64,000 nucleotides of DNA from an uncultured Bacillota bacterium (GTDB lineage: Bacteria; Bacillota_I; Bacilli_A; RFN20; CAG-288): assembly GCA_949282275.1 (NCBI GenBank), contig CASDOO010000010.1, positions 36,597 through 100,596 on the forward strand, read 5' to 3'. The translations under genes were made by a program, and so were the position numbers. Of the stretch, positions 4,003 through 56,606 are shown one piece after another (the stretch's first letter is position 1; the number at the start of each line of letters is the position of its first letter). The notes under the pieces were generated by a model, which was not told the DNA's origin, did no database searches, and saw nothing but the letters and a program-made list of their open reading frames with translations.

Positions 4003-4016
4003 TAATTTCCATTAAC

Positions 4017-4055
4017 AAAAAGAGGTTGTCCGTTTTTGCGGACAACCTCTTTTTC
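4017..4055 (+). terminator. Rho-independent terminator after the lipoprotein gene.
   Basis: AGAGGTTGTCCG / CGGACAACCTCT, a 12-bp perfect stem with a TTTTTG loop, followed by TTTT. Confidence 0.75.
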
Positions 4056-4311
4056 AATAGCACTAAACCCATTCTTTTGAAATCAGAGGGAATTTTTATA
4101 ATCCTTCCTAAAAAGCTTTAGGCCGAGATATCTGATTTCTTTATCTTGGTTAGAAAAAAGAGTCCGATTGTCCCCATGGTGACTGGGGACACAAAAGCAA
4201 CGAGGCCAAATGAAGAAAAGCCGTGCTGTCAAACCTTATAATTTTCAAACATGAAAACTCATCACATCCATTTCCTAAAAAAACTTCATCCGTTGTCCAT
4301 GCCAAAATTGT

Positions 4312-5007
4312 TTACTTCATCACTTTCCAATAGCCTCTATGATCAGAACCGATTCGTTCAATCAATCCTTTTTCCTCAAGTTTTTTCAGGCGCAATGCAA
4401 CTGTTTTACGACTAACAGACAGCGTATTGGCTAATTGCGACATGGTATATCCAGGATCTTCTTCCAACAATATCAGAATTTCTTTCTCCCCATCAGTCAC
4501 CTTATCAATCACCCTATCAGTCACCTGTACAAAGCGATTATCTTGAGCAGTAAATTCGATCATAATATCACCCGGGTTAATTACATATTTCGGTTGTAAC
4601 AATTCCTTCCTTCTTACATACAGAGAATATTTTCTCAACGCCCCTCCCCTAGCTCTCAATAAAGCCGGCAAGATAAAAAAGAGCGAGATTAGGATTATAC
4701 GAACTCAATGCATGTTTACTCATTAGGTTATCAATTGTCCGATTTTTCTGGCAAGTATCCACAATTGGCAATATACATTTCATCCTCATAAACGCTAAAT
4801 TCGAATCCAAACACCAGACTGATATCATTTATGACATAATGCATTGAGCAAAGCCTCTCGCAGGGCTTCCTCGGGGACAAAGTAACGCTCAAGTCGCTGC
4901 ATCCCCTCATAGATTATTTTTGCCCTCATGTCTTTGAAATACACAAGTTCGACGACTTTATCGATTTGTTCAAGAACAGATCCGTGGATTTCATCTTGAT
5001 AAAGCAA
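4312..5007 (-). pseudogene. Decayed COG2865-type regulator gene (Schlafen/AlbA_2-HATPase_c_4-wHTH family). Two out-of-frame fragments; the N-terminal domain is missing.
   Basis: The 60-aa fragment (4825-5007) carries …PEEALREALLNALCHK. The 119-aa fragment (4312-4671) carries …YVINPGDIMIEF… plus a C-terminal winged HTH (MSQLANTLSVSRKTVALRLKKLEEKGLI). Frames are broken between them. The region is A+T-rich. Confidence 0.55.
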
Positions 5008-5072
5008 ATCGGAATCTGTTTCAAAATATCCGATTGTCTTTTGCTTACTTTTAAAAATGAAGCATGCTCACC

Positions 5073-5888
5073 TTATCTCGAAACAGAGGCGATGTCCACT
5101 GACAGTTTCGCGATCTCTTCCGGTTCCATCTGCCTTGCCCTTAGGGAAAGTCGTGAATCCTCTTCTTCCTTGAGTTTTTCCAGCGCCTTTCCATAGCAAT
5201 CGAATTGCCTAAGGCAGTTTGAGATGGTCTTGTTGGGATCCTTAAACAAAGCCTTGAAGACAGGATAGAGAGAGAAGGGAATGGGATGCGTCAGGTTAAT
5301 ACGGAGAAAGGCGGAATCAACCTTCGGGGAAGGGTCGAAGCAAGAACGATCGACAAAGGTAACAAGGTTCAATGTGCCGCTGGCCTTGATCAAAGCCCCC
5401 AGAGGACTGTTCTCCTTCCTGCCCTTCTTGTAGTCCAGCTTTTCAAAGACTTCCTTCTGAACCATGAATCCGGCAGAGGAAAAACCCTTATCGAGCATAT
5501 ATTCCAAAAGCCTTGAGGTGATGTTATAGGGAAGGTTACCTATGAAAAGACGGCTATCCTTATGGCTGACAGCGTCCGGATCGAAGCGCAGGAAATCCGA
5601 CTGGACAATTTGAATATCGCCATTATCCATGAAAATATCATTGAGAACCTTGATCATGTCCCTGTCGGCATCAACAAGAATCAATTTTTTTGCCGATTTT
5701 GAAAGAGGAACGGAAAGTGCCCCTAATCCCGGTCCGATTTCGATGACCGTGTCGAAAGAGGAAACATCCATGCCGTCTACGATGCGCCGGATAATGCCAT
5801 CATCCACGAGAAAATTCTGGCCGAAGGACTTCTTCGCCGCAAAGCCATATTCACGCAATAGTTCTTTCGTTCTCTCTCGTTCAGTCAT
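5073..5888 (-). CDS. rsmA: 16S rRNA (adenine1518/1519-N6)-dimethyltransferase RsmA/KsgA.
   Basis: SFGQNFL motif, SAM-binding VIEIGPGLGALS, and NLPYNI. Confidence 0.9.
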   Translation of the reverse strand: MTERERTKELLREYGFAAKKSFGQNFLVDDGIIRRIVDGMDVSSFDTVIEIGPGLGALSVPLSKSAKKLILVDADRDMIKVLNDIFMDNGDIQIVQSDFLRFDPDAVSHKDSRLFIGNLPYNITSRLLEYMLDKGFSSAGFMVQKEVFEKLDYKKGRKENSPLGALIKASGTLNLVTFVDRSCFDPSPKVDSAFLRINLTHPIPFSLYPVFKALFKDPNKTISNCLRQFDCYGKALEKLKEEEDSRLSLRARQMEPEEIAKLSVDIASVSR

Positions 5889-6444
5889 CCGTCAATATCT
5901 CCTCGATTTCATTCTTTCCGACAGAAAGCATCAGAAGGCAATCCTCGACCTTTTTTGCCGACGTATAGGGGATGGAATAATGGTCAACGAGTTTCATCCT
6001 TTTCACCTTGCTCCCCTGGCCGATGAGTCCCAGGTCATAGAAGTCCTCTTCTTCAAGGGACAGCCTCTCATCCGTAAAGAGGTCGTGGGAGACAAAGACG
6101 CGGAGATAATCCTTCAGAACCTGAATGTCCATTTCGGCAACTCCGACCTTTCCTTTCCGGATGGCCTTCTTCTTGGGAACATTCAAGTGGATGCAGGGAC
6201 CGATTCGTTCCTCTACCATGGAAGCAATCCTTCTTCCTGGCCCATCCGGATCCACCACAAGAACGACGTCCCGCACTTCCTTGCATTTTTTAAGGAAGTC
6301 CGTGATTTCCCGACGGATGAAAACGCCTTCCGTCGGAACGACGAAAAGGCAGCCAAGCTTCTTCAGCTTGTCCTCGTCATGGATGCCTTCGCAGACATAG
6401 AGATATCTCTTGTCCGGATGTTGGCCTTCAAATTTCGATTCCAT
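5881..6444 (-). CDS. rnmV: Ribonuclease M5 (RnmV), Toprim domain.
   Basis: VCEGIHDEDKLKKLG Toprim start. A strong RBS (GGAGAAATTCT-ATG) supports a start at 6444, overlapping the tatD 3' end. The ORF track's longer version (start at 6501) is less likely. Conserved yabF-ksgA order. Confidence 0.75.
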   Translation of the reverse strand: MESKFEGQHPDKRYLYVCEGIHDEDKLKKLGCLFVVPTEGVFIRREITDFLKKCKEVRDVVLVVDPDGPGRRIASMVEERIGPCIHLNVPKKKAIRKGKVGVAEMDIQVLKDYLRVFVSHDLFTDERLSLEEEDFYDLGLIGQGSKVKRMKLVDHYSIPYTSAKKVEDCLLMLSVGKNEIEEILTDD

Positions 6445-7213
6445 AGAATTTCTCCGCGTTTTCAATAAGAATTTCGGCGCATGCTTCATCGTCCATGCCA
6501 TGGATAGCGGCTATCTCGCGAATGACAAGGGGAAGATAGGAAGGATCGTTTCTTTTTCCGCGATACGGCGTCGGCGTCAAGTATGGGGAATCCGTTTCGG
6601 TCAGCAGAATGGAGAGAGGGGCCTTGGATACGACTTCCTTGAGGACCCGGGCATTCTTGAAGGTCAGGACGCCACCAACTCCTATATGGAAATCCAATCC
6701 CAATCGGAGATAGTTTTCCATCATCTCATACGATCCGGAATAGCAATGAAGATCAAAAACCGGCGGTTTCTCCTGCCGGACAATTTCATACGTGTCCTGA
6801 TCCGCATCCCGGCTATGGATGACGACAGGCAGGGAAAGTTCCTTGGCAAGACGAATCTGACGGATGAAGATCTCCTTCTGTCTTTCCTTTGTCTTTGGGC
6901 TCTTGTCGTAATGATAGTCCAATCCAATTTCCCCAATTGCCTGGATCTCGCTTTTATGCTCCCGTATGAAAGAAAAAGCCTCATCGAAATAGTCGTCCTT
7001 CTCCATCGCAAATTCCGGATGGATGCCAATGACGGAATAGAAGAATCCAGGATATCGTTTGGCTAGGGAGAGGATCTTTTCGAAAGAGGGAAGGGAATCC
7101 GCCGTATTGAAACAGGCCCTGACGCCAGTGTCCCTGCATTTTTCGATAACGGAATCCAAATCCTCTGTATAGGAGACATCATTGAGATGGCAATGCGTAT
7201 CGATGATTCTCAT
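6428..7213 (-). CDS. tatD: TatD-family metal-dependent DNase/hydrolase.
   Basis: MRIIDTHCHLN… TatD signature and length. Confidence 0.9.
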   Translation of the reverse strand: MRIIDTHCHLNDVSYTEDLDSVIEKCRDTGVRACFNTADSLPSFEKILSLAKRYPGFFYSVIGIHPEFAMEKDDYFDEAFSFIREHKSEIQAIGEIGLDYHYDKSPKTKERQKEIFIRQIRLAKELSLPVVIHSRDADQDTYEIVRQEKPPVFDLHCYSGSYEMMENYLRLGLDFHIGVGGVLTFKNARVLKEVVSKAPLSILLTETDSPYLTPTPYRGKRNDPSYLPLVIREIAAIHGMDDEACAEILIENAEKFYGIEI

Positions 7214-7216
7214 ATT

Positions 7217-8572
7217 CTATTTCCCCAGGCAAAAACGCGAAAACAAAGTCTGATAGATATCTTCCATCGTCTGGGAGACGTTCTCCCCCATCAAAGCATT
7301 GAGAAGATCGATGGCCTGTCGGAGAGTATCGGAAGCAATATCGATCTGATGGATTTCCCGAATGGCCTTCCTTGTCTCCATCAGCTTTTCCAGGATATCG
7401 GAAAGGAACTGTTCTTCCCTCTTCCCAAGGAAGGAAGATTCCTCCTTCGTATCCAAGTCCAGCTTCTCGAAAAGAATCCGGATCAACGGATTGAGATCAT
7501 CCGTCAGCGAAGAGAGAAAAATATCGGCGTCCTTGCCATCTCCGCCAAGATCCTTTTTCGTGGCGGCCTTGACAAGGGGTTTGTCGCCTATGGCTTCCAA
7601 AAGATCTTTTTCGTTCTCAAGGAAAGAGAAGCCGCAGTCGGAAGCGAGGATGACGATATCGCTATCCTTGATTGTCTTGAAGGATTTGGCAATTCCGATA
7701 TTCTCAATTTCATCCGTCGTCTTTCTAATTCCGGCCGTATCCTTGAATTGGAATCGGATTCCTCCGATTTCCCTTTCCCCTTCAACGACATCGCGGGTCG
7801 TTCCCGGAACGGAGGAAACGATTGCCTTGTCTTCCTGGATGAGGGCATTGAGCAAGGTCGACTTACCGACATTGGGTTCCCCGGCAATGGCAACACGAAT
7901 GCCTTCGTATTCCCTGTTGTTCCGCCTTGTCCTCTCCAGCGTCCTGGACCAGGCAAGAACATCCTCATCGAGTAGGGAGGCGACCTCTTCGAGCTCTTCG
8001 TCGTAGTCTTCCTTCTCGTCCGTGTACTGATCCTCAACGAAATATTCCAGTTTGGCGATATCTTCCAGAAGCCTCTCTTTCAGTGCCTTTACGGCTCTCG
8101 TGTTTTCGCCACTGACCGTATTGTTGGCAATCTGCATTGCCCGTGTCGACGTCGCATGGATCAAATCATTGATTCCTTGGGCCTTAAGCAAATCCATCTT
8201 TCCGTTGAAATAAGCCTGGGCGGAAAACTCGCCCTTTTCAGCCCTTCTTGCACCGTTTCTTGCCAAGGCAGACAGAAGGGTTTCCGCAATCAAGGGAGAG
8301 CCGTGGATCGATAAATCGACGGAATCAAACCCTGTATAGGATCTAGGCCCCTTATAGAGAACCATTATGCATTCGTCGATATAGGTTTTTTCATCATTCC
8401 TATCGGCATAGATCTTTGTCAGATAGGCATGATCCATCGAAAGTTTGGAGACATCCCTCCTTGTCATTTTGGAAAGGACCTCGAAAGCCTTCGGGCCCGA
8501 AAGGCGAACCAAGGCCAAAGCGCTTCGATAAGGAGGTGTCGCTAGGGCACAAATAGTATCAAAAACAAGCAT
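7217..8572 (-). CDS. mnmE: tRNA modification GTPase MnmE (TrmE).
   Basis: N-terminal MnmE domain, G-domain GEPNVGKSTLLNAL, and the C-terminal CxGK (…FCLGK). Confidence 0.9.
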   Translation of the reverse strand: MLVFDTICALATPPYRSALALVRLSGPKAFEVLSKMTRRDVSKLSMDHAYLTKIYADRNDEKTYIDECIMVLYKGPRSYTGFDSVDLSIHGSPLIAETLLSALARNGARRAEKGEFSAQAYFNGKMDLLKAQGINDLIHATSTRAMQIANNTVSGENTRAVKALKERLLEDIAKLEYFVEDQYTDEKEDYDEELEEVASLLDEDVLAWSRTLERTRRNNREYEGIRVAIAGEPNVGKSTLLNALIQEDKAIVSSVPGTTRDVVEGEREIGGIRFQFKDTAGIRKTTDEIENIGIAKSFKTIKDSDIVILASDCGFSFLENEKDLLEAIGDKPLVKAATKKDLGGDGKDADIFLSSLTDDLNPLIRILFEKLDLDTKEESSFLGKREEQFLSDILEKLMETRKAIREIHQIDIASDTLRQAIDLLNALMGENVSQTMEDIYQTLFSRFCLGK

Positions 8573-8720
8573 GTTTTCATTATATCAATTTCCTTCCGTT
8601 TCTTCTCCTGGTACATCTTTCTCGCCATTCCGATAGAGCATCTTCAGCCATATAGTCACGGCATTTGAAATCCGCTTTCTTTCCCTTCAAAATAGACAGG
8701 TAACATATCAGGAGGCCACC

Positions 8721-9290
8721 ATGACGGTCGAGGAATATATAGAAGCGATAGAAAAAGATGGCAAAGTAAAGGCTGATTCAGAAATGCATGAAGTGATGCA
8801 TTTCCAAGCCTTGGAAGCAAGAAAAATAACAAGCGCAATCAACGGAGAATACCACGAGGTCCCGGAATTGCGTGAACTGTTTTCAAAACTAATAGGAGAA
8901 AAAGTCGACGATGGCTTCAGACTCTTCCCTCCTTTCTATACCGATTTCGGAAGGAACATCCATCTTGGAAGAAACGTCTTCATCAATTCCGGGTGTTGCT
9001 TCCAGGACCAGGGCGGCATCGAAATCGGAGACAATACCCTAATCGGACATCAATGTGTCCTGGCAACGATAAACCATGATCTCGATCCCGAAAAAAGAGG
9101 AGACATGGAAATGAGGAAAATCGTCATAGGCAGAAACGTCTGGATCGGAGCCCATGCCACCATCCTTCCAGGAGTGACGATCGGAGAAGGGAGCGTCGTT
9201 GCCGCCGGGGCAGTCGTCACGAAGGATGTTCCACCATTTACTGTCGTCGCCGGCGTGCCAGCAAGGGCAATCAGGAAAACCGAAAAATAG
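8721..9290 (+). CDS. Hexapeptide-repeat sugar O-acetyltransferase (maltose/galactoside acetyltransferase-like).
   Basis: Mac N-terminal domain followed by left-handed beta-helix hexapeptide repeats. GGAGG RBS. Confidence 0.8.
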
Positions 9291-13926: not shown

Positions 13927-14499
13927 ATGTCGTCCAAACCCTTCACGAAGCATGCCCAGCGCGTGCTCAACAAAAATCCGAACGTCGTCAAATGCACCGT
14001 CGCCAAGATCATCTTCAAGGAAGAATTCGCCTTGAAGGTCTGCGAGGCACTCAAGCAAGGCGAGGATCCCTACAAGGTCTTCACCGACAATGGGCTTTCG
14101 CTTCGTGTTCTCGGAAAGAGCCGCGTCAACGGTGTCATCGGCCTTTGGAAGTCCAAGTACAATCTTGAGAACCTTCCCAGGAGAAAGCCGCCCGTCAAGC
14201 CGAAGCCGCATGTCGAGACCGCCAAGGAAAGAAAGGAACGGAACCTTCGCGAGGCTATCGTCCTGTGCGATTCCTATATTGCCGATCCGTCCTCCCTTGG
14301 CCTGACTCCCGAGACGGACATCGACACCATCCGCTTTGCCGCCATCAAGAAGGTCTTCGATTCCGACCAGCCGGTCGTCGTCAAGGATCTTTGCGCCCAT
14401 TATGGCTATCCCTACTCCAAATACTACGGCTATCTTACCTCGCTCCGTCCCAACGAGGACACCTTCGTCAATATCCTCAATCCCCATCGGAAGAGATAA
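13927..14499 (+). CDS. Hypothetical protein, possibly a two-repeat HTH (IS3-OrfA-like, non-mobile) domain protein.
   Basis: Starts 3 nt after the ftsH stop. Two repeated ~50-aa units. I cannot assign it confidently. Confidence 0.45.
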   Translation: MSSKPFTKHAQRVLNKNPNVVKCTVAKIIFKEEFALKVCEALKQGEDPYKVFTDNGLSLRVLGKSRVNGVIGLWKSKYNLENLPRRKPPVKPKPHVETAKERKERNLREAIVLCDSYIADPSSLGLTPETDIDTIRFAAIKKVFDSDQPVVVKDLCAHYGYPYSKYYGYLTSLRPNEDTFVNILNPHRKR

Positions 14500-16178: not shown

Positions 16179-16619
16179 TTATCTTTCCAAACGTTCCTGC
16201 TTCCTTCTTTCCATCTTTTCCGTAACCAATTCTATCTCATCGAGGACCTTCTTCAGGTCCTCTTTTATTTCGTGTTCCCAAAAGCGCAGGACGACATATC
16301 CCATCTCGACAAGCTGTCTGTCCACCTTCCTGTCCCGTTCCCGATTGCGTCTTATCTTGGCGCTCCAGAAGGCCTTGTTCGTCTTTAGCTGTCCTTCGAT
16401 CCTGGCCAAGTCGTAGCCATGAAAAAAATCGCCATCGCAGAAGATGCAGACCCGATACTTCCTCAGGACGATGTCCGGATGTCCTGGCAGGGTGCTGACG
16501 TTCTTGCGATAGCGATAGCCTTCGTGGTAGAGGGCCTTCCTCAGGACAAGCTCAATGGAGGTATCCTTTCCATGGATACTGGCCATCATCGTGCTCGTCT
16601 TGGAAGAGTCCCTTTTCAT
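16179..16619 (-). CDS. vsr: Very-short-patch-repair endonuclease Vsr (T/G mismatch endonuclease).
   Basis: KDTSIE…FCDGDFFHG Vsr motifs (compare KDTxPE…FVHGCFWHG). Starts 4 nt after the NUDIX stop. Confidence 0.8.
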   Translation of the reverse strand: MKRDSSKTSTMMASIHGKDTSIELVLRKALYHEGYRYRKNVSTLPGHPDIVLRKYRVCIFCDGDFFHGYDLARIEGQLKTNKAFWSAKIRRNRERDRKVDRQLVEMGYVVLRFWEHEIKEDLKKVLDEIELVTEKMERRKQERLER

Positions 16620-16622
16620 TTC

Positions 16623-17051
16623 TCAGTCGTGCTTCCGGCGTCTTTCAAGCCGTTCCAGATAGCTGTCCGCCAAGGAAAGGGTCTCCTTGTCGGAAGGATA
16701 GGTAAGGAGTGACAAGGCTTCCTCCAGAGGAAGGAAAAGGATTTCCTCGACTTCCTCCTCCTGCGGATGGACCTCCCCGGAGACGACCTCGGCAAGATAG
16801 AAGGTCACGTCCTTCTGGATGCCTTCCTTCGGAGAGTAGGAAATCGTATGGCCATAGGTCGAATCCAGATCGACCGTCAATCCCGTTTCCTCGAGAATCT
16901 CGCGCATCGCGCATTCCCTGGGCGTCTCTCCCTTTTCGATATGTCCCTTGGGAAGGGAGACATGGCCAAGACGCATCTTTTCGATGAGATAGAGCCTCTT
17001 TTCGCCATCCTTTCGATAAACGACGGCACCATAGCTATATTCTTGTCTCAT
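16623..17051 (-). CDS. NUDIX hydrolase.
   Basis: NUDIX box GHIEKGETPRECAMREILEETGL. Start chosen at MRQEYSYG with a GGAAAGGAGAAGG RBS. The ORF-track N-extension overlaps the feoB terminator hairpin. Confidence 0.8.
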   Translation of the reverse strand: MRQEYSYGAVVYRKDGEKRLYLIEKMRLGHVSLPKGHIEKGETPRECAMREILEETGLTVDLDSTYGHTISYSPKEGIQKDVTFYLAEVVSGEVHPQEEEVEEILFLPLEEALSLLTYPSDKETLSLADSYLERLERRRKHD

Positions 17052-17083
17052 GCCTTCTCCTTTCCGATAACAAGGTCTTTTCC

Positions 17084-17117
17084 AGAAACTAAAACTCCCC
17101 TCTGTATTGCAGAGGGG
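17084..17117 (-). terminator. Rho-independent terminator after feoB.
   Basis: CCCCTCTG-caata-CAGAGGGG hairpin followed on the minus strand by AGTTTTAGTTTCT. Confidence 0.55.
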
Positions 17118-17253
17118 AGAGAGCAAAAGGAATTTTTATGTTGGAATTTATTATCGTTATCGTTGCCCAAGAAAGCCGTGCCTCTTAAGCAATAATAACT
17201 ATAAGGGATTGCGGACAGAATGTCAACTAAGCGTCTTCTTGAAAGCGGTTTAC

Positions 17254-38217: not shown

Positions 38218-38808
38218 ATGTATCAAGAACTTCAGAAAGGCTGGATAGAAGTCATCACGGGGCCGATGTTCGCCGGAAAGAGCGAGGAGCTGATCCGTCG
38301 TCTTCGTACCCTTTCCTACGCCCATAAGAAAATCGTCTCCTTCAAGCCGGCAATCGACGATCGCTATGACAAGACCAAGATCGCCAGTCACGATGGCGGA
38401 ATGTTCGAAGCCTACGCCATCAAGAAAGCCAAGGATGTCTACGAATTCCTGGAAGAAGACACGGAAGTCGTCGCCATCGACGAAGTCCAGTTCTTCGGCG
38501 TGGAAGTCGTTGACGTCATCGAAAGCCTGGCGGACAAGGGCGTCCGCGTCATCTGCGCCGGACTCGATCTCGACTTCCGGGGAGAGCCTTTCGGACCGAT
38601 GCCCATACTTCTTAGCAAGGCCGAGTTCGTCACGAAGCTTTCCGCCGCCTGCACGATCTGCGGATGCGCGGCGACAAGGACGCAAAGGCTTATCGACGGA
38701 AAGCCGGCAAACTACGACGATCCTGTCATCCTGGTCGGAGCGAAGGAATCCTACCAGGCGCGCTGCCGGAAGCATCATTGCGTTCCCAACAAGCCCATGA
38801 GGAAATGA
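38218..38808 (+). CDS. tdk: Thymidine kinase.
   Basis: P-loop [12 protein letters not shown] and a C-terminal zinc ribbon (CTICGCAA…CRKHH). Confidence 0.9.
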
Positions 38809-45485: not shown

Positions 45486-45791
45486 TCTATGTCCTCCTAG
45501 TTACGTCTTGTATTATAGCCAACGCAATATGCATTTTAAAGAGACTTTTCTTCGCTTTTTCGTTAAAATAGCGTTTTCATTTCACGATTTGCAACTTTTT
45601 TACTATTGCCATCGAAGACACCTTGGCAAATGCGCACGCAGTGTGCAAATATATCCTTTTCAAAACGTTAGGCTTTTATCGAGTCATAAACGCAATTTGT
45701 TTTTTTGTTTGTAGGTATTAACATGTTTATAAATAAGGAAAAGGCAACTCAACTATTTGCAGCATGAATATCTTGGAAGGAGGATATTGTT

Positions 45792-46451
45792 ATGGAGAAA
45801 GCTGCTGGCCTAAAGCTCTTCCTTATCTCCGGAGCCGTCCTATTGGGAGTAGGCGGAACAATCCTTGCAATAGGCGCAATAGAAGCTGCCTCGAATGGAC
45901 CGCGCGATAGCAAGACCGTGTCCGTCGAATCCTACGATGGGGCTTCCGATTTCAAGCTGACATCAAAGATGACCGTGCACATCGACTACGACAATTACGA
46001 GGGCCAGGCCTATTTTTCCCTCTTGGACGATACCACTTTCAACGACTACATCGCCGATCTGCAAGAACCGGGATATAACTTGACGAAACCGGCAGACGAC
46101 TTCTTCGTCGTCCAGTACAGACACGACGGTTTCGACTATTGCTTCTTTGTTTCGGGACCTTCTTCCTCTCCTGCCGCGAATTACTCCCTTCAGAACGTCC
46201 CTTTCCAGTGCCCGATCCTTCTCGTCAAAGAATACCGAAACATGTTGGAGGATCTTGATCTTGTCTATCAAGAGCCTTTCTCCAAAACGTGTCGCTATAC
46301 GACTGATCACGACTATGCGGACTTCAAGGCCTATTTCTCGAAAATCAACTTCTCCAATATCGCCTATCACGACGAGGAAAACACCATCGTCTATGATGAT
46401 ACCTACCGATTCCTCATCGATAGTGGGGAAGTTCTTGTCAGACCAGCATAA
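45792..46451 (+). CDS. Hypothetical membrane-anchored protein (219 aa).
   Basis: N-terminal TM/signal anchor. GGAGG RBS. No recognised family. Confidence 0.5.
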   Translation: MEKAAGLKLFLISGAVLLGVGGTILAIGAIEAASNGPRDSKTVSVESYDGASDFKLTSKMTVHIDYDNYEGQAYFSLLDDTTFNDYIADLQEPGYNLTKPADDFFVVQYRHDGFDYCFFVSGPSSSPAANYSLQNVPFQCPILLVKEYRNMLEDLDLVYQEPFSKTCRYTTDHDYADFKAYFSKINFSNIAYHDEENTIVYDDTYRFLIDSGEVLVRPA

Positions 46452-46556
46452 TTCCTTGCGTTTTCGGCAGACTCGATCCTTCCGTCTTTCCTTGTCGATA
46501 TAAAGAAAAGGCCGCCGGCTAGCCCCGACGACCTTTTCATGATGCCGAATGTTCCT

Positions 46557-49500
46557 TTATTCGGCCTTCGTCTCGACGGTCTTCTCTTCTTCCTTCTTCT
46601 TCTTTCCGCGGAAGGCCTGATCATAGACCAGCCATCCAATCCAGGCAACAAGGCCCAGGCCGACAACGACATCCAAGGCGATCATCCACTGGATCCAACC
46701 CGGGAGGATGGGAATGATCCTGGAATCGCTGGCGATGTCGTTCATGGCAGCGGAATTGCAGACGGTGTAGAGAACATTGTGGGCAGCCCTTCTCAGATAG
46801 GTGACGATCTGCGGATCATCAAGATAGTCGGTAAGGAGGAACTTGTTGGCAGCCGTATTCATCCACATATCGGTTCCGGCCTGAAGCCCGGCGCGGATAT
46901 CCATGTAGGACTCCAATCCGGCCATATCGGTCTCGATCATGCCGCGGAATCCCCACTCGTCCCTAAGAAGATCGGTAAGAAGTTCGCTGGAGGCACCGCA
47001 CCACTTGGTTCCGATACGGTTGAAGGCGTTCATCATGCAGAAGGATCCACCCGACTTGACGGCAAGTTCGAACGGCTTGAGGTAGATTTCCCTGGCCGCC
47101 TGTTCGTTGAGGAAGGTGGCAATGCCGTCCTTGGATCCCTTGATGCCGTTGTCCTCATCGATGTAGCCTTCCGTATCGTTGAAGGCGAAGTGCTTGACGA
47201 AGGTGTAGAGGCCCTTCTCGGCAGCACCGGCGACAGTCTGGGCTCCCATCTTTCCGGAGATGAAGCCATCCTCGGAATAGTATTCGAAGTTTCTTCCGGC
47301 ATAGGCCGTGCGATGGATGTTCATGGCCGGAGCATACCAACCTTGGACATTGGCGAACATCGCATCGTTTCCGACGGCAACGCCCATCTCGTAGGCAAGG
47401 TCGACGTTCCAGGTGGAGGCAAGGACGACTTCGGTCGGATAGGCCATACCCTTGCTTCCGCCGATAAGGGTCGCGGAGATGCCGGCAGGGCCATCCTTTT
47501 CTGTCGTGGCGGGCTTGTTGATTTCCTCGATGACAGGCGTTCCGTAACCGCCATTCCTGGCGATGTACTGAAGCTGATCGACGGTCAAGGAATCCAGCAA
47601 GGATTCCCAAGCGGGATCGTCATACTCGAGACCGATAAGGGAAGCAAGGTTGAAGGGCGAATCGGCTCCGGTCGTCGGCATCGTGTAGCTTTCGGAATCC
47701 TCGACATAGACAGGAGCCAAGTCATCGATAAGCTCCTGCGGGAAGGTGATGTAGTGCTCACCTGTCTTTTCGTCCGTCCTGTCGCAGAAAGGCTCCGGAT
47801 AGGTTCCCGTCCAGTCGCTTCTGGTCAGATACTTGAAATCGGAATATTCGTCATAGTAGTCAATGGAGGCGAAATCGAAGTGATTCTTGATCTCGACGCC
47901 AGTGGCGGAATCCTTCGAATAGGTCGAGGTATCGACACCGTTGTGCTTCCACTCGAAGACGAAGTTGACATCGCCATTTGCCGTCATGCCATCGCCCGTG
48001 TCATATCCCTTCTTGGAAAGAATGTTGTTGACGGCGGCATGGGCATCATCGGCAACGGTCAGATAGTAGGTGCCATCATCGAGGATGTAGGTTTCATCCT
48101 TCTGGTAGTCATAGGAGGTCAATTCGCTCTTGTCGACATCGATGGTGACGGTCGTTTCCTCGCCGGCATCCAGAAGATCGGTCTTGGCAAAGCCGACAAG
48201 CTCGACGGACGCCTTTTCGATGCCGTTGTCGATATCGTACTGGGTATAGGGAGACTGCATGTAGATTTCGACGACATCCTTGCCGGCGACATCGCCGGTA
48301 TTCTTGACGTTGACGGAAACGGTGAAGCTGTCGTCATTCTCCTTGACGCTGAACCCGGACTTCTCGAACTCCGTATAGGAGAGGCCGTATCCGAAGGGAT
48401 AGAGGACGGTGCTGGAATAATCGTAGGTGCCGACATTGCTTCTCTTCATGACGACATCTTCGTAACGGGTCTCATAGTAGCGATAGCCGACGTAGATGCC
48501 TTCCTGGTAGACGGTGTACTGATCCGCCTCGTTGACATAGCCGGCAGAGGTCGGCTTGTTCTCGATCCAGAAGTTGGCAGCGGAGTTCTGTGCGGCCGGC
48601 GCGGAATTGTTGTCGAAGACATAGGTATCGACAAGCTTTCCGGAGGGATTCGTCTTTCCGCTGAGAATTTCGGCAATGGCGGAAACGCCTGTCTGGCCAA
48701 GACCACCGCACCAAAGGACGGACTTGACGTTCTGATAATCCGCAAGGTCGCCAAGTTCCATGGTGTTGTTGGCATTGACGAGGACGACGACATTGTCAAA
48801 CTGCCTGTTGACGGCATCGAGCATGTCCCTTTCCTGCTGGGAGAGCTCCAGGTAGGATCCGGAGTTTCCCTCAAGACCCGTCGTCTCCTTGAAGTTGTGG
48901 GCGGTCAGATCGCTTCCCTCGCCACCGCTTCTGGACAGGACGACAACGGCAGCATCGCCAAACTGGGCAAAGGAGGATTGGCACTCCCGGCTGACATCCG
49001 CCCAAGGGACTTCGTTGATGGAGAACTTTCCGCCTCTCCAGTTCGGGGCAGAGCGGACATAGCCTTCCTCATGCTTCTTCTGATAGAAATCCCACAGCGT
49101 GGAATTGACGGAAAAGCCTTCGTCCTCGAGGGCCTGCTTGAAGGTCTTTGCCGTGGAAGTGTCGACCGAGCCCGAACCCGTTCCGCCGAGGACCATGTCG
49201 ACGGAGGAGACGGAGAAGACGGAAATCTTCGCATTGGCGCTCAACGGAAGGGATTCGTCGTTCTTGAGCAGGACGGCACCCTCGCCAGCGATACGCTTGG
49301 CAACATCGCCATTGTGCTTGGTCAGCTCTTCCTCGGTCTCAAAGTCGTTCTTGTAGCGTTCGGTATCTTCCTGGCTGTCTTCGTTCTTCTCGACACGGAA
49401 ATCGCTCTGATTGAAATAACGGGTAATCAAATCCCTGTAGTTGAGCGTAACGGCATTCAGCGTGATGATGGTTCCGACGATGAGGGCAATGCCGACGATG

Positions 49501-49562
49501 TGTACCGGCAAGAATCTTTTTCTCATGTTGCTTTTTGACTCCTTGTCTTTCAGGATGGCCAT
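46557..49562 (-). CDS. Glycoside hydrolase family 3 (beta-glucosidase-like) with N- and C-terminal membrane anchors.
   Basis: GH3 N-domain (KHF…) and C-domain motifs, an Fn3-like domain, a TM near the N-terminus, and a C-terminal TM followed by a KKKKEEEK tail. Confidence 0.85.
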   Translation of the reverse strand: MAILKDKESKSNMRKRFLPVHIVGIALIVGTIITLNAVTLNYRDLITRYFNQSDFRVEKNEDSQEDTERYKNDFETEEELTKHNGDVAKRIAGEGAVLLKNDESLPLSANAKISVFSVSSVDMVLGGTGSGSVDTSTAKTFKQALEDEGFSVNSTLWDFYQKKHEEGYVRSAPNWRGGKFSINEVPWADVSRECQSSFAQFGDAAVVVLSRSGGEGSDLTAHNFKETTGLEGNSGSYLELSQQERDMLDAVNRQFDNVVVLVNANNTMELGDLADYQNVKSVLWCGGLGQTGVSAIAEILSGKTNPSGKLVDTYVFDNNSAPAAQNSAANFWIENKPTSAGYVNEADQYTVYQEGIYVGYRYYETRYEDVVMKRSNVGTYDYSSTVLYPFGYGLSYTEFEKSGFSVKENDDSFTVSVNVKNTGDVAGKDVVEIYMQSPYTQYDIDNGIEKASVELVGFAKTDLLDAGEETTVTIDVDKSELTSYDYQKDETYILDDGTYYLTVADDAHAAVNNILSKKGYDTGDGMTANGDVNFVFEWKHNGVDTSTYSKDSATGVEIKNHFDFASIDYYDEYSDFKYLTRSDWTGTYPEPFCDRTDEKTGEHYITFPQELIDDLAPVYVEDSESYTMPTTGADSPFNLASLIGLEYDDPAWESLLDSLTVDQLQYIARNGGYGTPVIEEINKPATTEKDGPAGISATLIGGSKGMAYPTEVVLASTWNVDLAYEMGVAVGNDAMFANVQGWYAPAMNIHRTAYAGRNFEYYSEDGFISGKMGAQTVAGAAEKGLYTFVKHFAFNDTEGYIDEDNGIKGSKDGIATFLNEQAAREIYLKPFELAVKSGGSFCMMNAFNRIGTKWCGASSELLTDLLRDEWGFRGMIETDMAGLESYMDIRAGLQAGTDMWMNTAANKFLLTDYLDDPQIVTYLRRAAHNVLYTVCNSAAMNDIASDSRIIPILPGWIQWMIALDVVVGLGLVAWIGWLVYDQAFRGKKKKEEEKTVETKAE

Positions 49563-49646
49563 CCCTTTGCCAAGACTATAAAGGCGTCATGAAAGCGGTT
49601 CAACGAAACAAGCCTATCCTTGCTGTTTCATCGTCCTAACCTTTCG

Positions 49647-50987
49647 CTATGCCGGTATCGGAAGAAGGATGTTGAGAGTGAAAATATTGTTTTCGCCGGG
49701 AATCATCTGGATATCCCCGTTGTAGTTCTGAACGATGAATTGAATGCTTTTTGTGCCAAAACCATGGTTTTCCTGATCTTTTTTCGTCGTAATGAGCTTT
49801 TTTGCTTTCGTTTTCACGATACCATCGTAATAATTCCGGATGACGATCGAGACGAAGCCCTTCTTTCTTTCGATGACGATGGAGATGAAACTCTTCTCCT
49901 CGGGGACCTTCATGGAAGCTTCGATGGCATTGTCGATAGCGTTTCCAAAGAGCGAATAGATTTCATTGTCTCGAATGAAGGAAAGGGAGGCACCGTCGGC
50001 GATGACGGAAAGATTTATCTTCTGTTGCTTGCAGACCATCTGCTTTTCCATCAGGACGATGTTCAAGGCCTCGCATCCTGTCTTCAGGCCGGCATCATAG
50101 ACGGAAATGACCTCCGAAATCTGTTTCAGCTCATTGGTGTCGAGGCTCTTCCCGCCTTGGGCAAGGGCGCGGATCTGGTGCTTGAGGTCATGGCACTTGA
50201 TGTTGAGAAGGTCGATGTTTGCCTTGCTCATCTCGTATTGCTGGGTCTGCTTGTAGAGAAGGTTCTGGTATTCGTCAGGTTCCGCCTTGAGTTCGCTTTC
50301 CTGAAGGAAGTTGAACATGATGAGGAGGATGCCCAGGGAACAAATCATGTTGTAGACTTCGTTGAAAATCATGTAGAAACGATTGAAGTCTGTATAGCTA
50401 TAGAAGGTGACGACGGCATTGATGACAATGTCGACGGCCATGACGGCAACAAGGCCAATCAGGACCGAAGGATACTTGACCTTTATCTTGGCATGCTTCT
50501 GGATTCGGTAACCGAAAAGGAAATAGCAGAGCCAATAGATATCCAAATAGGCAAAAAGATAGACAAGGATGGAGATGGGATTGAATAGGGCTTGGCTGTC
50601 GTTGGACTGTCCATAGCCGACAAGGGAGTTGAAGGAGCCGATGTTGAAGAGGTTCAAGGCGAGGTTGTAGCATTCATAGGCCAAATGCTGCGTCGCATAA
50701 CCGGCAAGGGCAACGAAGACGACGCCATTGAAATCCTCGTCGAAGATGAACAGGCACGAAACGATCGTTGCCGCAAAGATCGTGAAGAAGAGAATCGACG
50801 TATACCAAAAGTTGTAGGAGAATTCGCCGATCGGAAAAAGGGACGTGATGAGGTAGATGACGGCAATGGAAACGGGAATGCGAAAATACGGCCTGTCCCT
50901 GAGATTCAGCTTGAAGGAAAAAAGGAAGACGGCAAAAATCAGCTCCGTGGTGAACAGGTATTTGTATTCCGCAAGGCCGCCTATCAT
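49647..50987 (-). CDS. AgrC-like (HPK10-type) sensor histidine kinase, partner of the LytTR regulator.
   Basis: 6-7 N-terminal TM segments, H-box …KCHDLKHQIRAL…, and a GHKL ATPase domain. Confidence 0.8.
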   Translation of the reverse strand: MIGGLAEYKYLFTTELIFAVFLFSFKLNLRDRPYFRIPVSIAVIYLITSLFPIGEFSYNFWYTSILFFTIFAATIVSCLFIFDEDFNGVVFVALAGYATQHLAYECYNLALNLFNIGSFNSLVGYGQSNDSQALFNPISILVYLFAYLDIYWLCYFLFGYRIQKHAKIKVKYPSVLIGLVAVMAVDIVINAVVTFYSYTDFNRFYMIFNEVYNMICSLGILLIMFNFLQESELKAEPDEYQNLLYKQTQQYEMSKANIDLLNIKCHDLKHQIRALAQGGKSLDTNELKQISEVISVYDAGLKTGCEALNIVLMEKQMVCKQQKINLSVIADGASLSFIRDNEIYSLFGNAIDNAIEASMKVPEEKSFISIVIERKKGFVSIVIRNYYDGIVKTKAKKLITTKKDQENHGFGTKSIQFIVQNYNGDIQMIPGENNIFTLNILLPIPA

Positions 50988-51694
50988 TTCCTTGCTCCGC
51001 TAAGATAGAGATTAAGCACCCTCATGAACTCTTTCTTCTTCGGATGGGAAATCAGGAGTTCCTCATCCCCGATCCGGATCGTATATCCGCTGACGGAAGA
51101 GACATGGGAAAGATTGACAAGATAGCAGTTGTTGCATCGGGCAAAGAGGGCTGGATTGACCTTCGCCTCGATTTCCTTGAGCGTTCCATAGGATTTGATG
51201 TTCTTCGTGACGGTATGGATGACAAGGGAATGGTGCATGACTTCGACGTAGGCGATTTCATCCTGCCTCAGCGTCACCAGTTCCTTGCCGCTGGATATGC
51301 GTATTGGCATGTCCTTGTTCGTCATCGCTTTGTCGATGGCTTTCTGTATCTTGAAGAAGAAGTCGTAGTACTTGACCGGCTTGACGACAAAATCCAAAGC
51401 CTCGACTTCATAGCCGTTAATGGCAAACTGGGCGAGGTTCGTGACAAAAATGATACTGACCTTTCTGTCGACGTTCTGCAACGCCTTGGCCAAATCGATA
51501 CCGTTGCTATCCTTCAAATCGATGTCCAGAAAGACGATATCGAAACTATCGTCCAGATTTTCGAGGAATGTCTTGCCATTGGGAAAACGCGTGATTCAAA
51601 ATTGGATCTTCTCCTCTTCCTGATACCTTTTCAGGACAGAATCGAGGTTCCCGAAGTCGCTATCATCATCTTCGACAATGGCTATCTTGAGCAT
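50984..51694 (-). pseudogene. LytTR-family response regulator interrupted by an in-frame TGA (codon 33).
   Basis: ATG at 51694 gives MLKIAIVEDDD…KIQF-TGA(51598-51596)-ITRFPNGKTFLENLDDSFDIVFLDIDL…, then the LytTR domain, all in one frame. Overlaps the kinase gene by 4 nt. Confidence 0.75.
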
Positions 51695-51984
51695 TTTTCC
51701 TATCGATGTTTCAGCATGATTTTATGGAAAAGGGAAAGGGATTTCAATCATTGTTCGTGGCACCGAAAAAGGTAAAACATATAATGTTTTAATCTTTTTT
51801 CTTTACCGCCGAAACGCGGTGGTTTTCAATACGATTCCCTATTCTCTGTCGGTTCTTTTTGGTTGTTTTTCTTTCCTTGATCCGTAGAGAAGTCGACAGC
51901 ATTCTTGTCCATCGCAAAACTATGTTTAACAATATAGAACCAAGTCTTTTTATAAATAAAACTTGTTTCAACTATCTTTTGCTT

Positions 51985-52941
51985 TTATTTATCAATCTTT
52001 TCGATTTCTTCTCTCAATGCCGAAATGATATGGACGACGCCGGATTTCGATATCGGCGTCCCGTTTGCGCTCAAGAACTCGGCGATTTCCCGGTAATTGA
52101 AATCCTCATGCTCCAGGCGAGCCTTGATGACCTCCTGCGCCTTCTTGTCGAAAAGGGGAAGAGGCTTGACCTTCAAAAGCCTATTGATGCCCTCGATATC
52201 CTTTTTTGCCGTCGACAGCGTCTTTCCGTAATTGGCGGAATCGCAAATGGAGAGCCTGTTGTTGATGTTGATGTCCTCCTTGAGGATTCTGGCGTTTTCG
52301 AAGGAAAACATCGCGGAGGTCGCCCCGATAAAGGAGAGAAAAACGGAAATCTGATCGCTTCGCTTGAGATAGAGGACCTGTTTTTCCCTTCTCTTGATCG
52401 TCTTGAAGTTCATCGTCTTCTCTTCCTTGAAGGTAAGAAGCTTTCTCTTTATCGCCAAGGCGTCGTCCTTGTTGTTGAAGGACATCTCAAGGAAATAGGA
52501 CGTCTTGCTCGTCGTCGGATTGTTGACGCTGCCGCTGGAGAGAAAGACGCCGATGAGAAGGAAACGGAAATTGTTCTTTCTCAGTCCCTCTTTCGGAACC
52601 ATTCTCTCGATGCCGTCCTGAAGGACTTCCAGGTCATCCATGATTTTGTAGAGGTCGGGAGAGGAAACGACGACCTGATAGGCAATGCCCTTCCTGAAGC
52701 GGGTCACCTGTTCATAGACGATCCTCGGGGAAAGGCCATAGCATTCCTTGAGCGCCTGGAAGAGCAGCTTGGCGACTTTTGCCAACTCCGTCCGAAGATG
52801 AAGGGTCGGATTCTTTCCAAAGGAAAACACGCCCCCATTGCGAGCAAAGCCGGAAAGGATGTATTTCAGTTCTTCCTTTCCATAAGCATAGGAGGCAAGC
52901 TCGTTCTTGACGCTGCGGGTGAAGTTCTCCTTTTTTTCCAT
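51985..52941 (-). CDS. whiA: DNA-binding protein WhiA.
   Basis: Degenerate LAGLIDADG-like N-terminal domains plus a C-terminal HTH. Start at METKENFTRSVKNEL…. Confidence 0.85.
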   Translation of the reverse strand: MEKKENFTRSVKNELASYAYGKEELKYILSGFARNGGVFSFGKNPTLHLRTELAKVAKLLFQALKECYGLSPRIVYEQVTRFRKGIAYQVVVSSPDLYKIMDDLEVLQDGIERMVPKEGLRKNNFRFLLIGVFLSSGSVNNPTTSKTSYFLEMSFNNKDDALAIKRKLLTFKEEKTMNFKTIKRREKQVLYLKRSDQISVFLSFIGATSAMFSFENARILKEDININNRLSICDSANYGKTLSTAKKDIEGINRLLKVKPLPLFDKKAQEVIKARLEHEDFNYREIAEFLSANGTPISKSGVVHIISALREEIEKIDK

Positions 52942-52945
52942 CGTC

Positions 52946-53875
52946 TCACTTCTTCCGGGAATGGAGATAGTCGTAATGAATCTGCGTCGCGGCAAGGGAA
53001 CCGTCGGCAACGGCCATGGTAATCTGGCGAAGCGGCGTGTTGCGACAATCGCCGATGGCATAGAGATTTTGTACTTGGGTCTTCATCGTGGTCGGATCGG
53101 CCTTGAGGAATCCTCTCTCGTCGGCAACGCCGGGAATCTGCAGGAATCCCGTGACCGGAATGGATCCGACATAGACGAACATGCCTTGGACAGCAAGCTC
53201 CATTTCCTCGCCGGTCTTCGAATTCTTGACGGTGACAGCCTCCAAGGAATCCGTTCCGCGGCAGGCGATGCACTGATAGGGAGCGAGAATCCGACTGTTT
53301 TCGAAGGCGCGGAATCTCTCGACGGCTTCTTCCTGGGCACGGAACTCTTCCCTTCTGGCGACGAGGGTGACGGAATGGCATATGGAGCAAAGATAGCAGG
53401 CTTCCTCGAAGGCAGCATTTCCCGAGCCGATGACAAGGACGTCCTTTCCCTTGTAGAAGGGTCCGTCGCAGACGGCACAGGTGCTGATGCCCTTGCGCTT
53501 GAAGGTTTCCTCGCCCGGAACATGATAAGGCCTATCGGCAAGACCGTTTGCCAGGAGGACGTATGGGAACGTTCTCTCCTCCTTGCCATAGGTCACGCTG
53601 AAAGTGCCATCGGCGTTCTGATAGACGCCGTTGATTTCGCTATAGATGGGCTTGATATCCAGATTCTTGAGCTGTTGCGCAATCTGGAGTCCGAGCTCCG
53701 GTCCTTTCACGCCAAGGTAGCCAGGATAGTTCTCGATCTTCTCGGTATAGTTGGTCTTTCCGCCAATCAGATCCTTTTCGAAAACGACTGGCTCCATTCC
53801 ATAACGCTTGAGATAGATGGCAGCGGAAGCACCGGCAGGGCCACAGCCGATGATGCAGACTTCCTTTTCGTTCAT
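52946..53875 (-). CDS. trxB: Thioredoxin-disulfide reductase.
   Basis: FAD motif CIIGCGPAG and the CAVC redox centre. Confidence 0.85.
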   Translation of the reverse strand: MNEKEVCIIGCGPAGASAAIYLKRYGMEPVVFEKDLIGGKTNYTEKIENYPGYLGVKGPELGLQIAQQLKNLDIKPIYSEINGVYQNADGTFSVTYGKEERTFPYVLLANGLADRPYHVPGEETFKRKGISTCAVCDGPFYKGKDVLVIGSGNAAFEEACYLCSICHSVTLVARREEFRAQEEAVERFRAFENSRILAPYQCIACRGTDSLEAVTVKNSKTGEEMELAVQGMFVYVGSIPVTGFLQIPGVADERGFLKADPTTMKTQVQNLYAIGDCRNTPLRQITMAVADGSLAATQIHYDYLHSRKK

Positions 53876-55517: not shown

Positions 55518-56606
55518 TCACTTGCCTTCCTTCATGAACTTCTCGTCGACGATCATTCTCTTCTTCTCTTCTTCCGGATAGTTCGACTCCGGGTTTATGA
55601 GACCGACCTGGATGCTTTCCTTATCCCCCTTTGAGGCAGAGCTTTCGTCCTGTCCATGGAAGACAAGCATCTCGGCTTCCCTTTTCTCCATCTGCTTCTT
55701 TTCCTGAAGCTCGACAAGCCTTCTTTGGAACTCATAGCCCGTGTCGTAACCGAAATCCTTGAGCTTGAAGTTCGTGACGGCCGCCTCGATGATGTCGGAC
55801 ATGGAGCGGGCCGCCGAAACGGGAAGCTTGACCATAGGAACGAACTCGCCGAGGATCTCATAGCGATCGGTCTTCATCCCGACCCTTTCCATCGGTTCGT
55901 TCCGATTGAAGGAGACGAGATTGACGACAAAGGATATCTTCGCGCTCTTGGAGAGGGAATTGATGCCGAACATCCTGGCGACATCGATAATGCCGATGCC
56001 GCGGACTTCCATCATGCCATAGATGGATTCCGGACAGGTTCCGATAAGCTTGCCGCGGACATCCCGGATATCGACCCTGTCATCGGCGATGAGACGATGG
56101 CCTTTCTTGATCAGGTCCAGGGAGATTTCGGACTTTCCGATGCCGGACTCGCCAAGGATCAGGACGCCAATGCCATAGATTTCCATGAGTCCCGCATGGA
56201 CGGCCGTCTTGGGGGCAAGGGCTTCCGCAAGATAGACATACATGTCCGCAGAAAGACGGGAGGTATCGGCATCGGAAGAGAAAATGGGGCAATTCGTTTC
56301 CCTTGCCGCCCTCATGATGGGTTCCGGACAGCTATCCCCATGGGTGACGATGATGCACGGACACTCATTGGAACAGATCTTGAGTGCGTTGAGATAGACG
56401 AAATTCGGATCGGAATCCTTGATAAGGGCCATTTCCTTATGGCCGATGATCATGATCCTATCCTTCTCGTGGAACTGGAAGATTCCCAAAAGCTCGACGC
56501 CGGGACGATCCAGCTCGGCGACGGTGATACGACGCTTCAGGCTTTCCAGGTCCCCGTTAAGAAGCCGGAAGCCGAAGTGATTTGCCAAATCCAGACTGGT
56601 AAGCAT
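55518..56606 (-). CDS. hprK: HPr kinase/phosphorylase with a roughly 50-aa acidic C-terminal tail.
   Basis: Walker A GESGIGKSE and the HprK C-terminal domain. Conserved hprK-lgt order. Confidence 0.9.
   Translation of the reverse strand: MLTSLDLANHFGFRLLNGDLESLKRRITVAELDRPGVELLGIFQFHEKDRIMIIGHKEMALIKDSDPNFVYLNALKICSNECPCIIVTHGDSCPEPIMRAARETNCPIFSSDADTSRLSADMYVYLAEALAPKTAVHAGLMEIYGIGVLILGESGIGKSEISLDLIKKGHRLIADDRVDIRDVRGKLIGTCPESIYGMMEVRGIGIIDVARMFGINSLSKSAKISFVVNLVSFNRNEPMERVGMKTDRYEILGEFVPMVKLPVSAARSMSDIIEAAVTNFKLKDFGYDTGYEFQRRLVELQEKKQMEKREAEMLVFHGQDESSASKGDKESIQVGLINPESNYPEEEKKRMIVDEKFMKEGK

Follow-up and report, generated by a model that had tools for sequence, protein, structure and literature searches.

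This report concerns an interrupted regulatory gene of an uncultured Bacillota bacterium (GTDB lineage Bacilli_A, RFN20, CAG-288). The gene lies in a stretch of 64,000 nucleotides, called the window below, which was taken from contig CASDOO010000010.1 of GenBank assembly GCA_949282275.1 (positions 36,597 to 100,596 of the forward strand). Coordinates are those of the window. On the minus strand a response regulator (RR) gene of the LytTR family is followed by the genes of a histidine kinase and a GH3 glycoside hydrolase, and the reading frame of the RR gene is interrupted by a lone TGA at codon 33. The features of the RR gene and its upstream region are as follows.

51719..51747, minus strand: sigma-70-like promoter candidate (TTGAAA, a 17-nt spacer, TAAAAT), some 25 nt before the RR start, a consensus match only
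50984..51694, minus strand: interrupted LytTR-family RR gene with a receiver and a LytTR DNA-binding domain, conceptually 236 codons, defined by translation, Pfam and homologue alignment
51599..51694, minus strand: 32-codon N-terminal open reading frame (ORF) covering strand 1, helix 1 and the start of strand 2, the expected product of normal termination
51596..51598, minus strand: the in-frame TGA, codon 33, in the second beta-strand region of the receiver and upstream of the phospho-acceptor Asp57
50984..51517, minus strand: TTG-initiated ORF of 177 amino acids (aa), the gene call of the annotation pipelines, which starts past Asp57 and is without the acidic pocket and the phospho-acceptor

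The reading frame on both sides of codon 33

The RR frame opens with an ATG at 51694-51692, which has a Shine-Dalgarno-like AGGA on its 5' side (51701-51698), and runs through 32 sense codons, MLKIAIVEDDDSDFGNLDSVLKRYQEEEKIQF, to the TGA. Another 203 sense codons follow in the same frame and end at a TGA at 50986-50984 that overlaps the start of the kinase gene (ATGA; kinase ATG at 50987). A preliminary description of this DNA had placed the start at 51694 and the stop at 51598-51596 and had the same frame continuing uninterrupted through the LytTR domain; reading and translating the sequence confirmed all three.

With the stop masked, the Pfam Response_reg model matches residues 4-109, across the position of the stop (E 6.8e-14), and the LytTR model matches residues 138-227 (E 1.8e-15; 57.4 bits against a cut-off of 22.6 bits). 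The conceptual protein was aligned with 21 homologues, 20 of them full length (233-251 aa) and the other the 177-aa gene call (P0001). Its first 32 residues align without gaps, include the acidic-pocket residues E8 and D9, and are identical to the closest full-length orthologue at 19 of 32 positions. E8, D9, D52, D57, T85 and K105 all fall in invariant or near-invariant columns. Because the Response_reg match spans the stop and the upstream residues match the orthologue, the codon-33 locus is a broken gene and not two ORFs aligned by chance. Both domains that define the LytR/AlgR (LytTR) family are present and only the uninterrupted ORF is missing, at codon 33; the gene is a member of the family by descent, as a disrupted member.

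The promoter candidate should be read against the background of the consensus scan, which returned four sites where 3.3 were expected in shuffled sequences. A repeat search found no direct-repeat candidates for a LytTR box upstream of the RR or GH3 genes.

The same TGA in other assemblies

The comparison took in every distinct locus with the 177-aa ORF, from GCA_964328895.1 (L004), ERZ16268070 (L005 and L010), ERZ16268039 (L006), ERZ13616895 (L015) and the Logan assemblies of ERR10610450, ERR10610512 and ERR10610449 (L007, L008 and L009, respectively). Codon 33 is TGA in all eight sequences that cover the site, namely the window and seven further assemblies from as many sample or assembly accessions. 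Over the RR and kinase genes, L005 to L010 share 99.9-100% identity with the window. Across 7 kb, L004 has 66 substitutions relative to the window (99.07% identity), and L015 differs from L004 at 13 positions and by a 4-nt indel in 2.6 kb. The carriers of the TGA thus include two diverged variants, about 1% from the window. Because other assemblies, these variants among them, carry the same TGA, a sequencing or assembly error is excluded for practical purposes, and the sequencing error that the preliminary description had kept among its three options is effectively refuted.

The 177-aa ORF is represented in the public collection by two near-identical proteins, on at least 11 contigs. Among the best 120 of 1,595 RR homologues, identity falls directly from 99% to 66%, and the sole homologue above 66% is the truncated 177-aa call. 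No intact RR allele of the same species is on record among 5.8 billion clusters, and a scan of genome contigs for the RR returned distant orthologues only (63%, 41% and 35% identity). A scan of JGI metagenomes with the 30-nt context, the codon being left free, gave no match in a collection in which the species is not present. A further scaffold, L016, was rejected as an additional strain, as it begins downstream of codon 33 and may be chimeric.

How UGA is decoded

TGA is an ordinary terminator in this genome. Among 42 genes called on codon usage in the window, 21 end in TAA, 12 in TGA and nine in TAG. The genes that end in TGA include tatD, tdk, trxB, lgt and hprK. In tatD the Pfam model is matched to its last position three residues before the TGA, and in tdk (38218-38808) all 176 positions of the Pfam TK model are matched (1-176/176) ahead of the TGA at 38806-38808. 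The preliminary description had cited tdk as an example of TGA used as a stop and had judged genome-wide recoding unlikely; the first point holds, and the second is correct.

A scan of the window for further genes split by a lone stop found none; it gave only neighbouring genes that share a frame by chance. The only other pair of same-frame ORFs separated by a TGA is a NUDIX gene with its stop at 16625-16623 and a Vsr-type mismatch endonuclease that starts one codon on (16179-17126, minus strand); these are probably two separate genes. No tRNA genes were found within the window.

The sequence around codon 33 has none of the marks of selenocysteine insertion. A 91-nt stretch that begins just before the UGA folds no more stably than its shuffled versions (z = 0.14), so that the search for a structure like a selenocysteine insertion sequence (SECIS), which had been proposed as a check, came back empty, and an Rfam search at codon 33 returned noise only. 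The homologues in the alignment of 21 have E, Q, S, T, D, Y, N or K at position 33, and never Cys. The comparison with orthologues, likewise proposed earlier, gave a clear answer: the aligned codon is GAA in the closest intact orthologue (L011, 66% aa identity) and CAA in the next (L001, 63%), and the stop is not conserved. Two steps separate GAA or CAA from TGA; CGA, AGA, GGA, TCA and TGG are possible one-step sources, none of which was observed. Selenoprotein genes have a SECIS hairpin and Cys in their homologues, and reassigned codes (tables 4 and 25) do not terminate at TGA; the RR locus differs on each count. Selenocysteine, code reassignment and a conserved site of programmed read-through are therefore all unsupported.

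The kinase, the GH3 enzyme and their island

The RR gene belongs to a small accessory island, which has the following additional features.

45700..51978: accessory island of 6.3 kb, with a 219-aa gene on the plus strand and then the GH3, kinase and RR genes on the minus strand
49647..50987, minus strand: intact histidine kinase of 446 aa with a polytopic N-terminus and a GHKL-type HATPase_c_5 domain (Pfam)
46557..49562, minus strand: GH3 glycoside hydrolase of 1001 aa with a permuted domain order (Pfam, NCBIfam), the third gene of the cassette
46654..50444: segment of ~3.8 kb missing from L004 and L015 through a deletion with its junction at a 10-nt microhomology, CCTTGTTGCC

Full-length alignments of the kinase with its orthologues show 66% and 60% identity and conservation of the H-box His, the N-box and the G-box. 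The kinase gene has GGAG/AAGGA motifs of its own upstream of its ATG. In the GH3 protein the GH3_C domain (residues 97-360) comes first, followed by an Fn3-like domain (430-506) and GH3_N (705-906), and there are hydrophobic segments at both termini.

The order RR, kinase, GH3 recurs in L011 (66%, 66% and 80% identity, respectively), where the flanking genes are different. The three genes therefore form a conserved cassette. The GH3 enzyme is better conserved than its regulators, at 80% against 66% identity to L011. In L012 (1108-3184) and L013 (471-2547), from the species with the intact orthologue, a second, divergently oriented pair of LytTR RR and GHKL kinase lies directly upstream of the cassette; the kinase of this second pair is 26% identical to that of the window. 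In L016 (ERZ16268131 scaffold_8282) a window-type kinase and GH3 gene (98%) are joined to an L011-type GH3 3' end, with unrelated genes (an esterase and others) downstream. L016 may have arisen by natural recombination between strains or, alternatively, as an assembly chimera of the two species in one sample. Two shortened GH3 calls were rejected as examples of further decay: one of 755 aa (L005) is caused by a scaffold gap of unspecified bases (Ns), and one of 853 aa matches the window without a difference along its entire length and probably reflects a contig end.

LytTR response regulators that work with HPK10-type GHKL kinases (AgrA/AgrC, LytR/LytS, BtsR/BtsS and ComE/ComD) have the same layout of receiver and LytTR domain, and as in those systems the RR gene of the window overlaps the start of a polytopic HATPase_c_5 kinase. 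ComE (PDB 4cbv) aligns over residues 3-207. The difference is the interruption of the window ORF at codon 33. The RR falls below the cut-offs of the NCBIfam equivalogs for LytR (77 against 375 bits), BtsR (57 against 246) and AgrA (54 against 400), and no NCBIfam model matched the kinase. The pair had been called AgrC-like; this stands at the level of the domains, that is, the polytopic N-terminus and HATPase_c_5, but goes no further, given the AgrA score and the lack of agrB or agrD nearby. An agrBDCA locus would include those two genes. The RR has whiA upstream and GH3 downstream instead, and the orthologous cassette is again RR, kinase and GH3. The GH3 gene as a conserved neighbour suggests that the regulon has to do with carbohydrates and not with peptide quorum sensing.

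Erosion of the island in close relatives

The island is flanked by housekeeping genes on the minus strand: uvrA, hprK, lgt, a HAD phosphatase gene, trxB and whiA upstream, and gap, pgk and tpi downstream. Between 45.7 and 52 kb there are no credible ORFs besides the island genes. Searches with GroEL and WhiA group the organism with uncultured "Bacilli bacterium" MAGs; named GroEL matches are 82-85% identical, and WhiA is 46% identical to that of Candidatus Enterosoma.

In two conspecific assemblies, L004 and L015, the 3.8-kb deletion has joined the final ~28 codons of GH3 in frame to kinase codon ~180, which creates an ORF for a 208-aa product; the catalytic half of the kinase and nearly all of GH3 are gone. 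In the nearest sister species (WhiA 92% identical in aa; six loci, L017 to L022) whiA is directly followed by gap, with about 37 nt where the window has the island. In L023, from a second sister species (WhiA 87%), the whiA-gap site (5167-9267) holds a different GH3 gene of 1029 aa, with 34% identity to the window GH3 and the same permuted architecture. After it comes a 141-aa ORF that is what remains of the 3' end of a window-type GH3 gene (353 nt, 85% identity).

The deletion in L004 and L015, the absence in L017 to L022 and the remnant in L023 show that the island is dispensable and that this small clade has seen at least three independent erosions of it. Near both island borders there is an 11-nt direct repeat, TTATTTATAAA, at ~51959 and ~45736 (compared with L017 8958-9000). 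It could mark a deletion or insertion junction, or be a chance repeat in AT-rich spacer.

Other features of the window

Two patches have a GC content well below the 0.51 of the window, 4001-6000 (0.42) and 26001-28000 (0.40). The first holds a gene of the rRNA adenine dimethylase family (5073-5888) and the second an HTH_3 gene (26324-26947) and a DUF3990 gene (26934-27614). Both patches may have been acquired horizontally. A 190-aa ORF between ftsH and lemA (13927-14499) matches the transposon-related HTH_Tnp_2 model (E 1.9e-5). HprK/P is typically about 310 aa long; the protein encoded at 55518-56606 has 362 aa, with a charged C-terminal extension of ~50 residues that is also present in the sister species (363 aa).

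Probable inactivation of the response regulator

We consider it probable, at roughly 0.72, that the TGA is a genuine nonsense mutation, carried by every sampled genome of the species, which inactivates the RR in an island that is being lost. Termination at codon 33 would yield a 32-residue peptide without Asp57, T85, K105 and the whole LytTR domain. Since the phospho-acceptor and the DNA-binding parts are all encoded downstream of the stop, phosphotransfer from the kinase to a DNA-binding output would be abolished, and from the position of the stop we infer a loss of RR function. The locus resembles a unitary nonsense pseudogene in two respects: the disabling lesion lies in a conserved domain and is verified beyond one assembly, and the dispensability of the gene is shown by loss of its partners or of the whole locus in close relatives. 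A nonsense mutation was also among the options of the preliminary description, where it was recent and left an orphaned kinase. The mutation itself stands; private or very recent it is not, being present in eight of eight sequences that include variants about 1% diverged. The kinase is plausibly an orphan in window-type strains, and the earlier wording applies to these strains only, as in L004 and L015 the kinase itself is truncated by the 3.8-kb deletion.

The nearest named parallel is agr-defective Staphylococcus aureus, in which loss-of-function changes in a LytTR RR or its kinase (nonsense or frameshift mutations in agrA and agrC) recur and likewise spread naturally (PMC8768832, PMC6686034). 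There a core virulence regulator is affected, the lesions are polymorphisms between strains, and poly(A) tracts make some of them reversible. The window RR differs in having a point nonsense codon, in all sampled genomes, within an accessory island that relatives have lost.

Several observations weigh against simple inactivation. Apart from codon 33 the RR gene is flawless, with no further stop or frameshift and with every invariant and near-invariant residue of the family kept. The kinase is full length with its catalytic motifs intact. A relative-rate test against L011 detected no acceleration in the RR (16 unique changes in the window against 27) or in the kinase (29 against 47). Between the window and L004 the N-terminal part of the kinase has accumulated nine synonymous and two non-synonymous changes (binomial p = 6e-5 against neutrality), because of which the kinase is taken to be under purifying selection for most of the divergence between these two variants. 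Finally, a complete loss of function would not be guaranteed by this codon, because UGA is the leakiest stop in Escherichia coli reporters (PMC11126739).

The selection signal in the kinase consists of few substitutions and is weakened by recombination or by mixed-strain consensus. The whiA-RR segment (50880-52962) has seven single-nucleotide polymorphisms (SNPs) between the window and L004 where 19.4 were expected (p = 0.001), about 3.5-fold below its flanks, and its synonymous divergence is 0.01, that of the flanks 0.04-0.07. Such a pattern suggests that a tract with the TGA allele in it has recently recombined. In L015 (1115-1741, ~5x coverage), window-like and L004-like alleles alternate at 11 polymorphic codons of the kinase N-terminus, which reflects either fine-scale recombination between strains or a mixed-strain consensus. 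The low-SNP block and the mosaic L015 confound any dating of the TGA relative to the substitutions. Within the RR itself there are two synonymous and one non-synonymous changes between the window and L004, and none and two, respectively, between the two deletion carriers L004 and L015. On the scale of the gene family and of species divergence the lesion appears to be young, because there is no second stop or frameshift and no accelerated protein evolution.

Alternatives to inactivation

The main rival to a pseudogene is a leaky stop that attenuates expression. A near-cognate tRNA-Trp would read the UGA at a low rate, a little full-length RR would be made with Trp at a tolerant surface position, and in window-type strains the two-component system would work at a lower dosage. 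In E. coli reporters no stop is misread more often than TGA, mostly with insertion of Trp (PMC11126739); the introduction of the same paper cites an earlier report of up to 14% read-through in one genetic context. In-frame stops with a ratio of non-synonymous to synonymous substitution rates (dN/dS) below 1 are reported to be widespread in bacteria, yet the same study concludes that they are mostly short-lived polymorphisms (PMC7918605). The RR gene shares with that class a single stop in an otherwise intact, family-typical ORF that is common to close genomes. Position 33 is variable and is Tyr in one homologue, the TGA is common to all sampled variants, and the absence of a second lesion or rate acceleration in the RR, the intact kinase and the nine-to-two ratio in its N-terminus are all what a leaky stop would allow. 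Against this, there is no stimulatory structure downstream, the orthologues are without the stop, and the selection signal comes from 11 substitutions confounded by recombination or mosaicism. The system is moreover dispensable, half of the kinase and GH3 being deleted in two assemblies of the species itself and the island being absent from the sister species. Unlike cases of regulated read-through, the deletions and absences in relatives at this locus point to gene loss. We regard attenuation through a leaky stop as unlikely, though less so than any other alternative. Slightly less likely still is the stronger form, in which the UGA is tolerated or even maintained as an attenuator and Trp insertion sets a very low RR dosage for the GH3-linked system.

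A functional truncated product is distinctly less probable than a leaky stop. Translation would restart at the TTG of codon 60 (51517) or at Met129 and produce a stand-alone LytTR protein whose activity would not depend on phosphorylation. Other Firmicutes have stand-alone LytTR regulators, the LytTR domain (138-227) is untouched here, and in every assembly it is the 177-aa TTG ORF that gene callers annotate. The TTG is, however, the first canonical in-frame restart after the stop, and an ORF caller would pick it mechanically. Inspection of the sequence on its 5' side found no clear Shine-Dalgarno motif, only a GGA at about -10. The product would begin with half a receiver, without strands 1-3, the acidic pocket and Asp57, which from receiver architecture is unlikely to fold or dimerise, and the island that encodes it is lost in relatives. 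The annotated 177-aa "gene" is most likely an artefact of the caller. One pipeline also called the N-terminal part of the RR, as a 32-aa gene in L006.

A reversible phase-off switch, the second of the options first considered, would convert the stop to a sense codon and back at high frequency and maintain ON and OFF subpopulations. There is a precedent in another LytTR system: the reversible agr variants of S. aureus arise from changes in a poly(A) tract of agrA and from a duplication-inversion in agrC (PMC6686034). These reported switches use tract length or rearrangement and not point nonsense codons. The lesion at codon 33 is a base substitution within CAATTTTGAATC, where the longest homopolymer is T4, and neither inspection nor a repeat search found a tandem, simple-sequence or inverted repeat at or near the codon. 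All eight assembled sequences are in the OFF state, with no sense allele. In phase-variable loci a hypermutable tract or an invertible element occurs together with alleles in both states, and at the level of assemblies the RR locus has neither. The switch is accordingly unsupported and very improbable.

Least probable of all, to the point of being negligible, is an artefact of sequencing or assembly, or a UGA that is read as selenocysteine or as a reassigned sense codon: this was an a priori possibility, nothing more, set against the same codon in seven other assemblies from as many accessions, TGA terminators in 12 of 42 genes with conserved housekeeping genes among them, and no SECIS-like hairpin, Rfam match or homologous Cys at position 33.

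Implications

A nonsense-inactivated regulator in an accessory locus is a well-known phenomenon, and the significance of this case beyond annotation is small. It provides a worked example in which a population-wide nonsense codon was told from a sequencing error by means of independent metagenome assemblies. Were functional read-through of the UGA true, the locus would represent natural stop-codon attenuation of a signalling protein, which would be of moderate interest, the concept being already established. For the organism itself, the "LytTR protein" of 177 aa that all public assemblies of the species list is the tail of a broken RR gene, and the adjacent kinase is best treated as a probable orphan. 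In this clade the interval between whiA and gap is a small hotspot of gene gain and loss.

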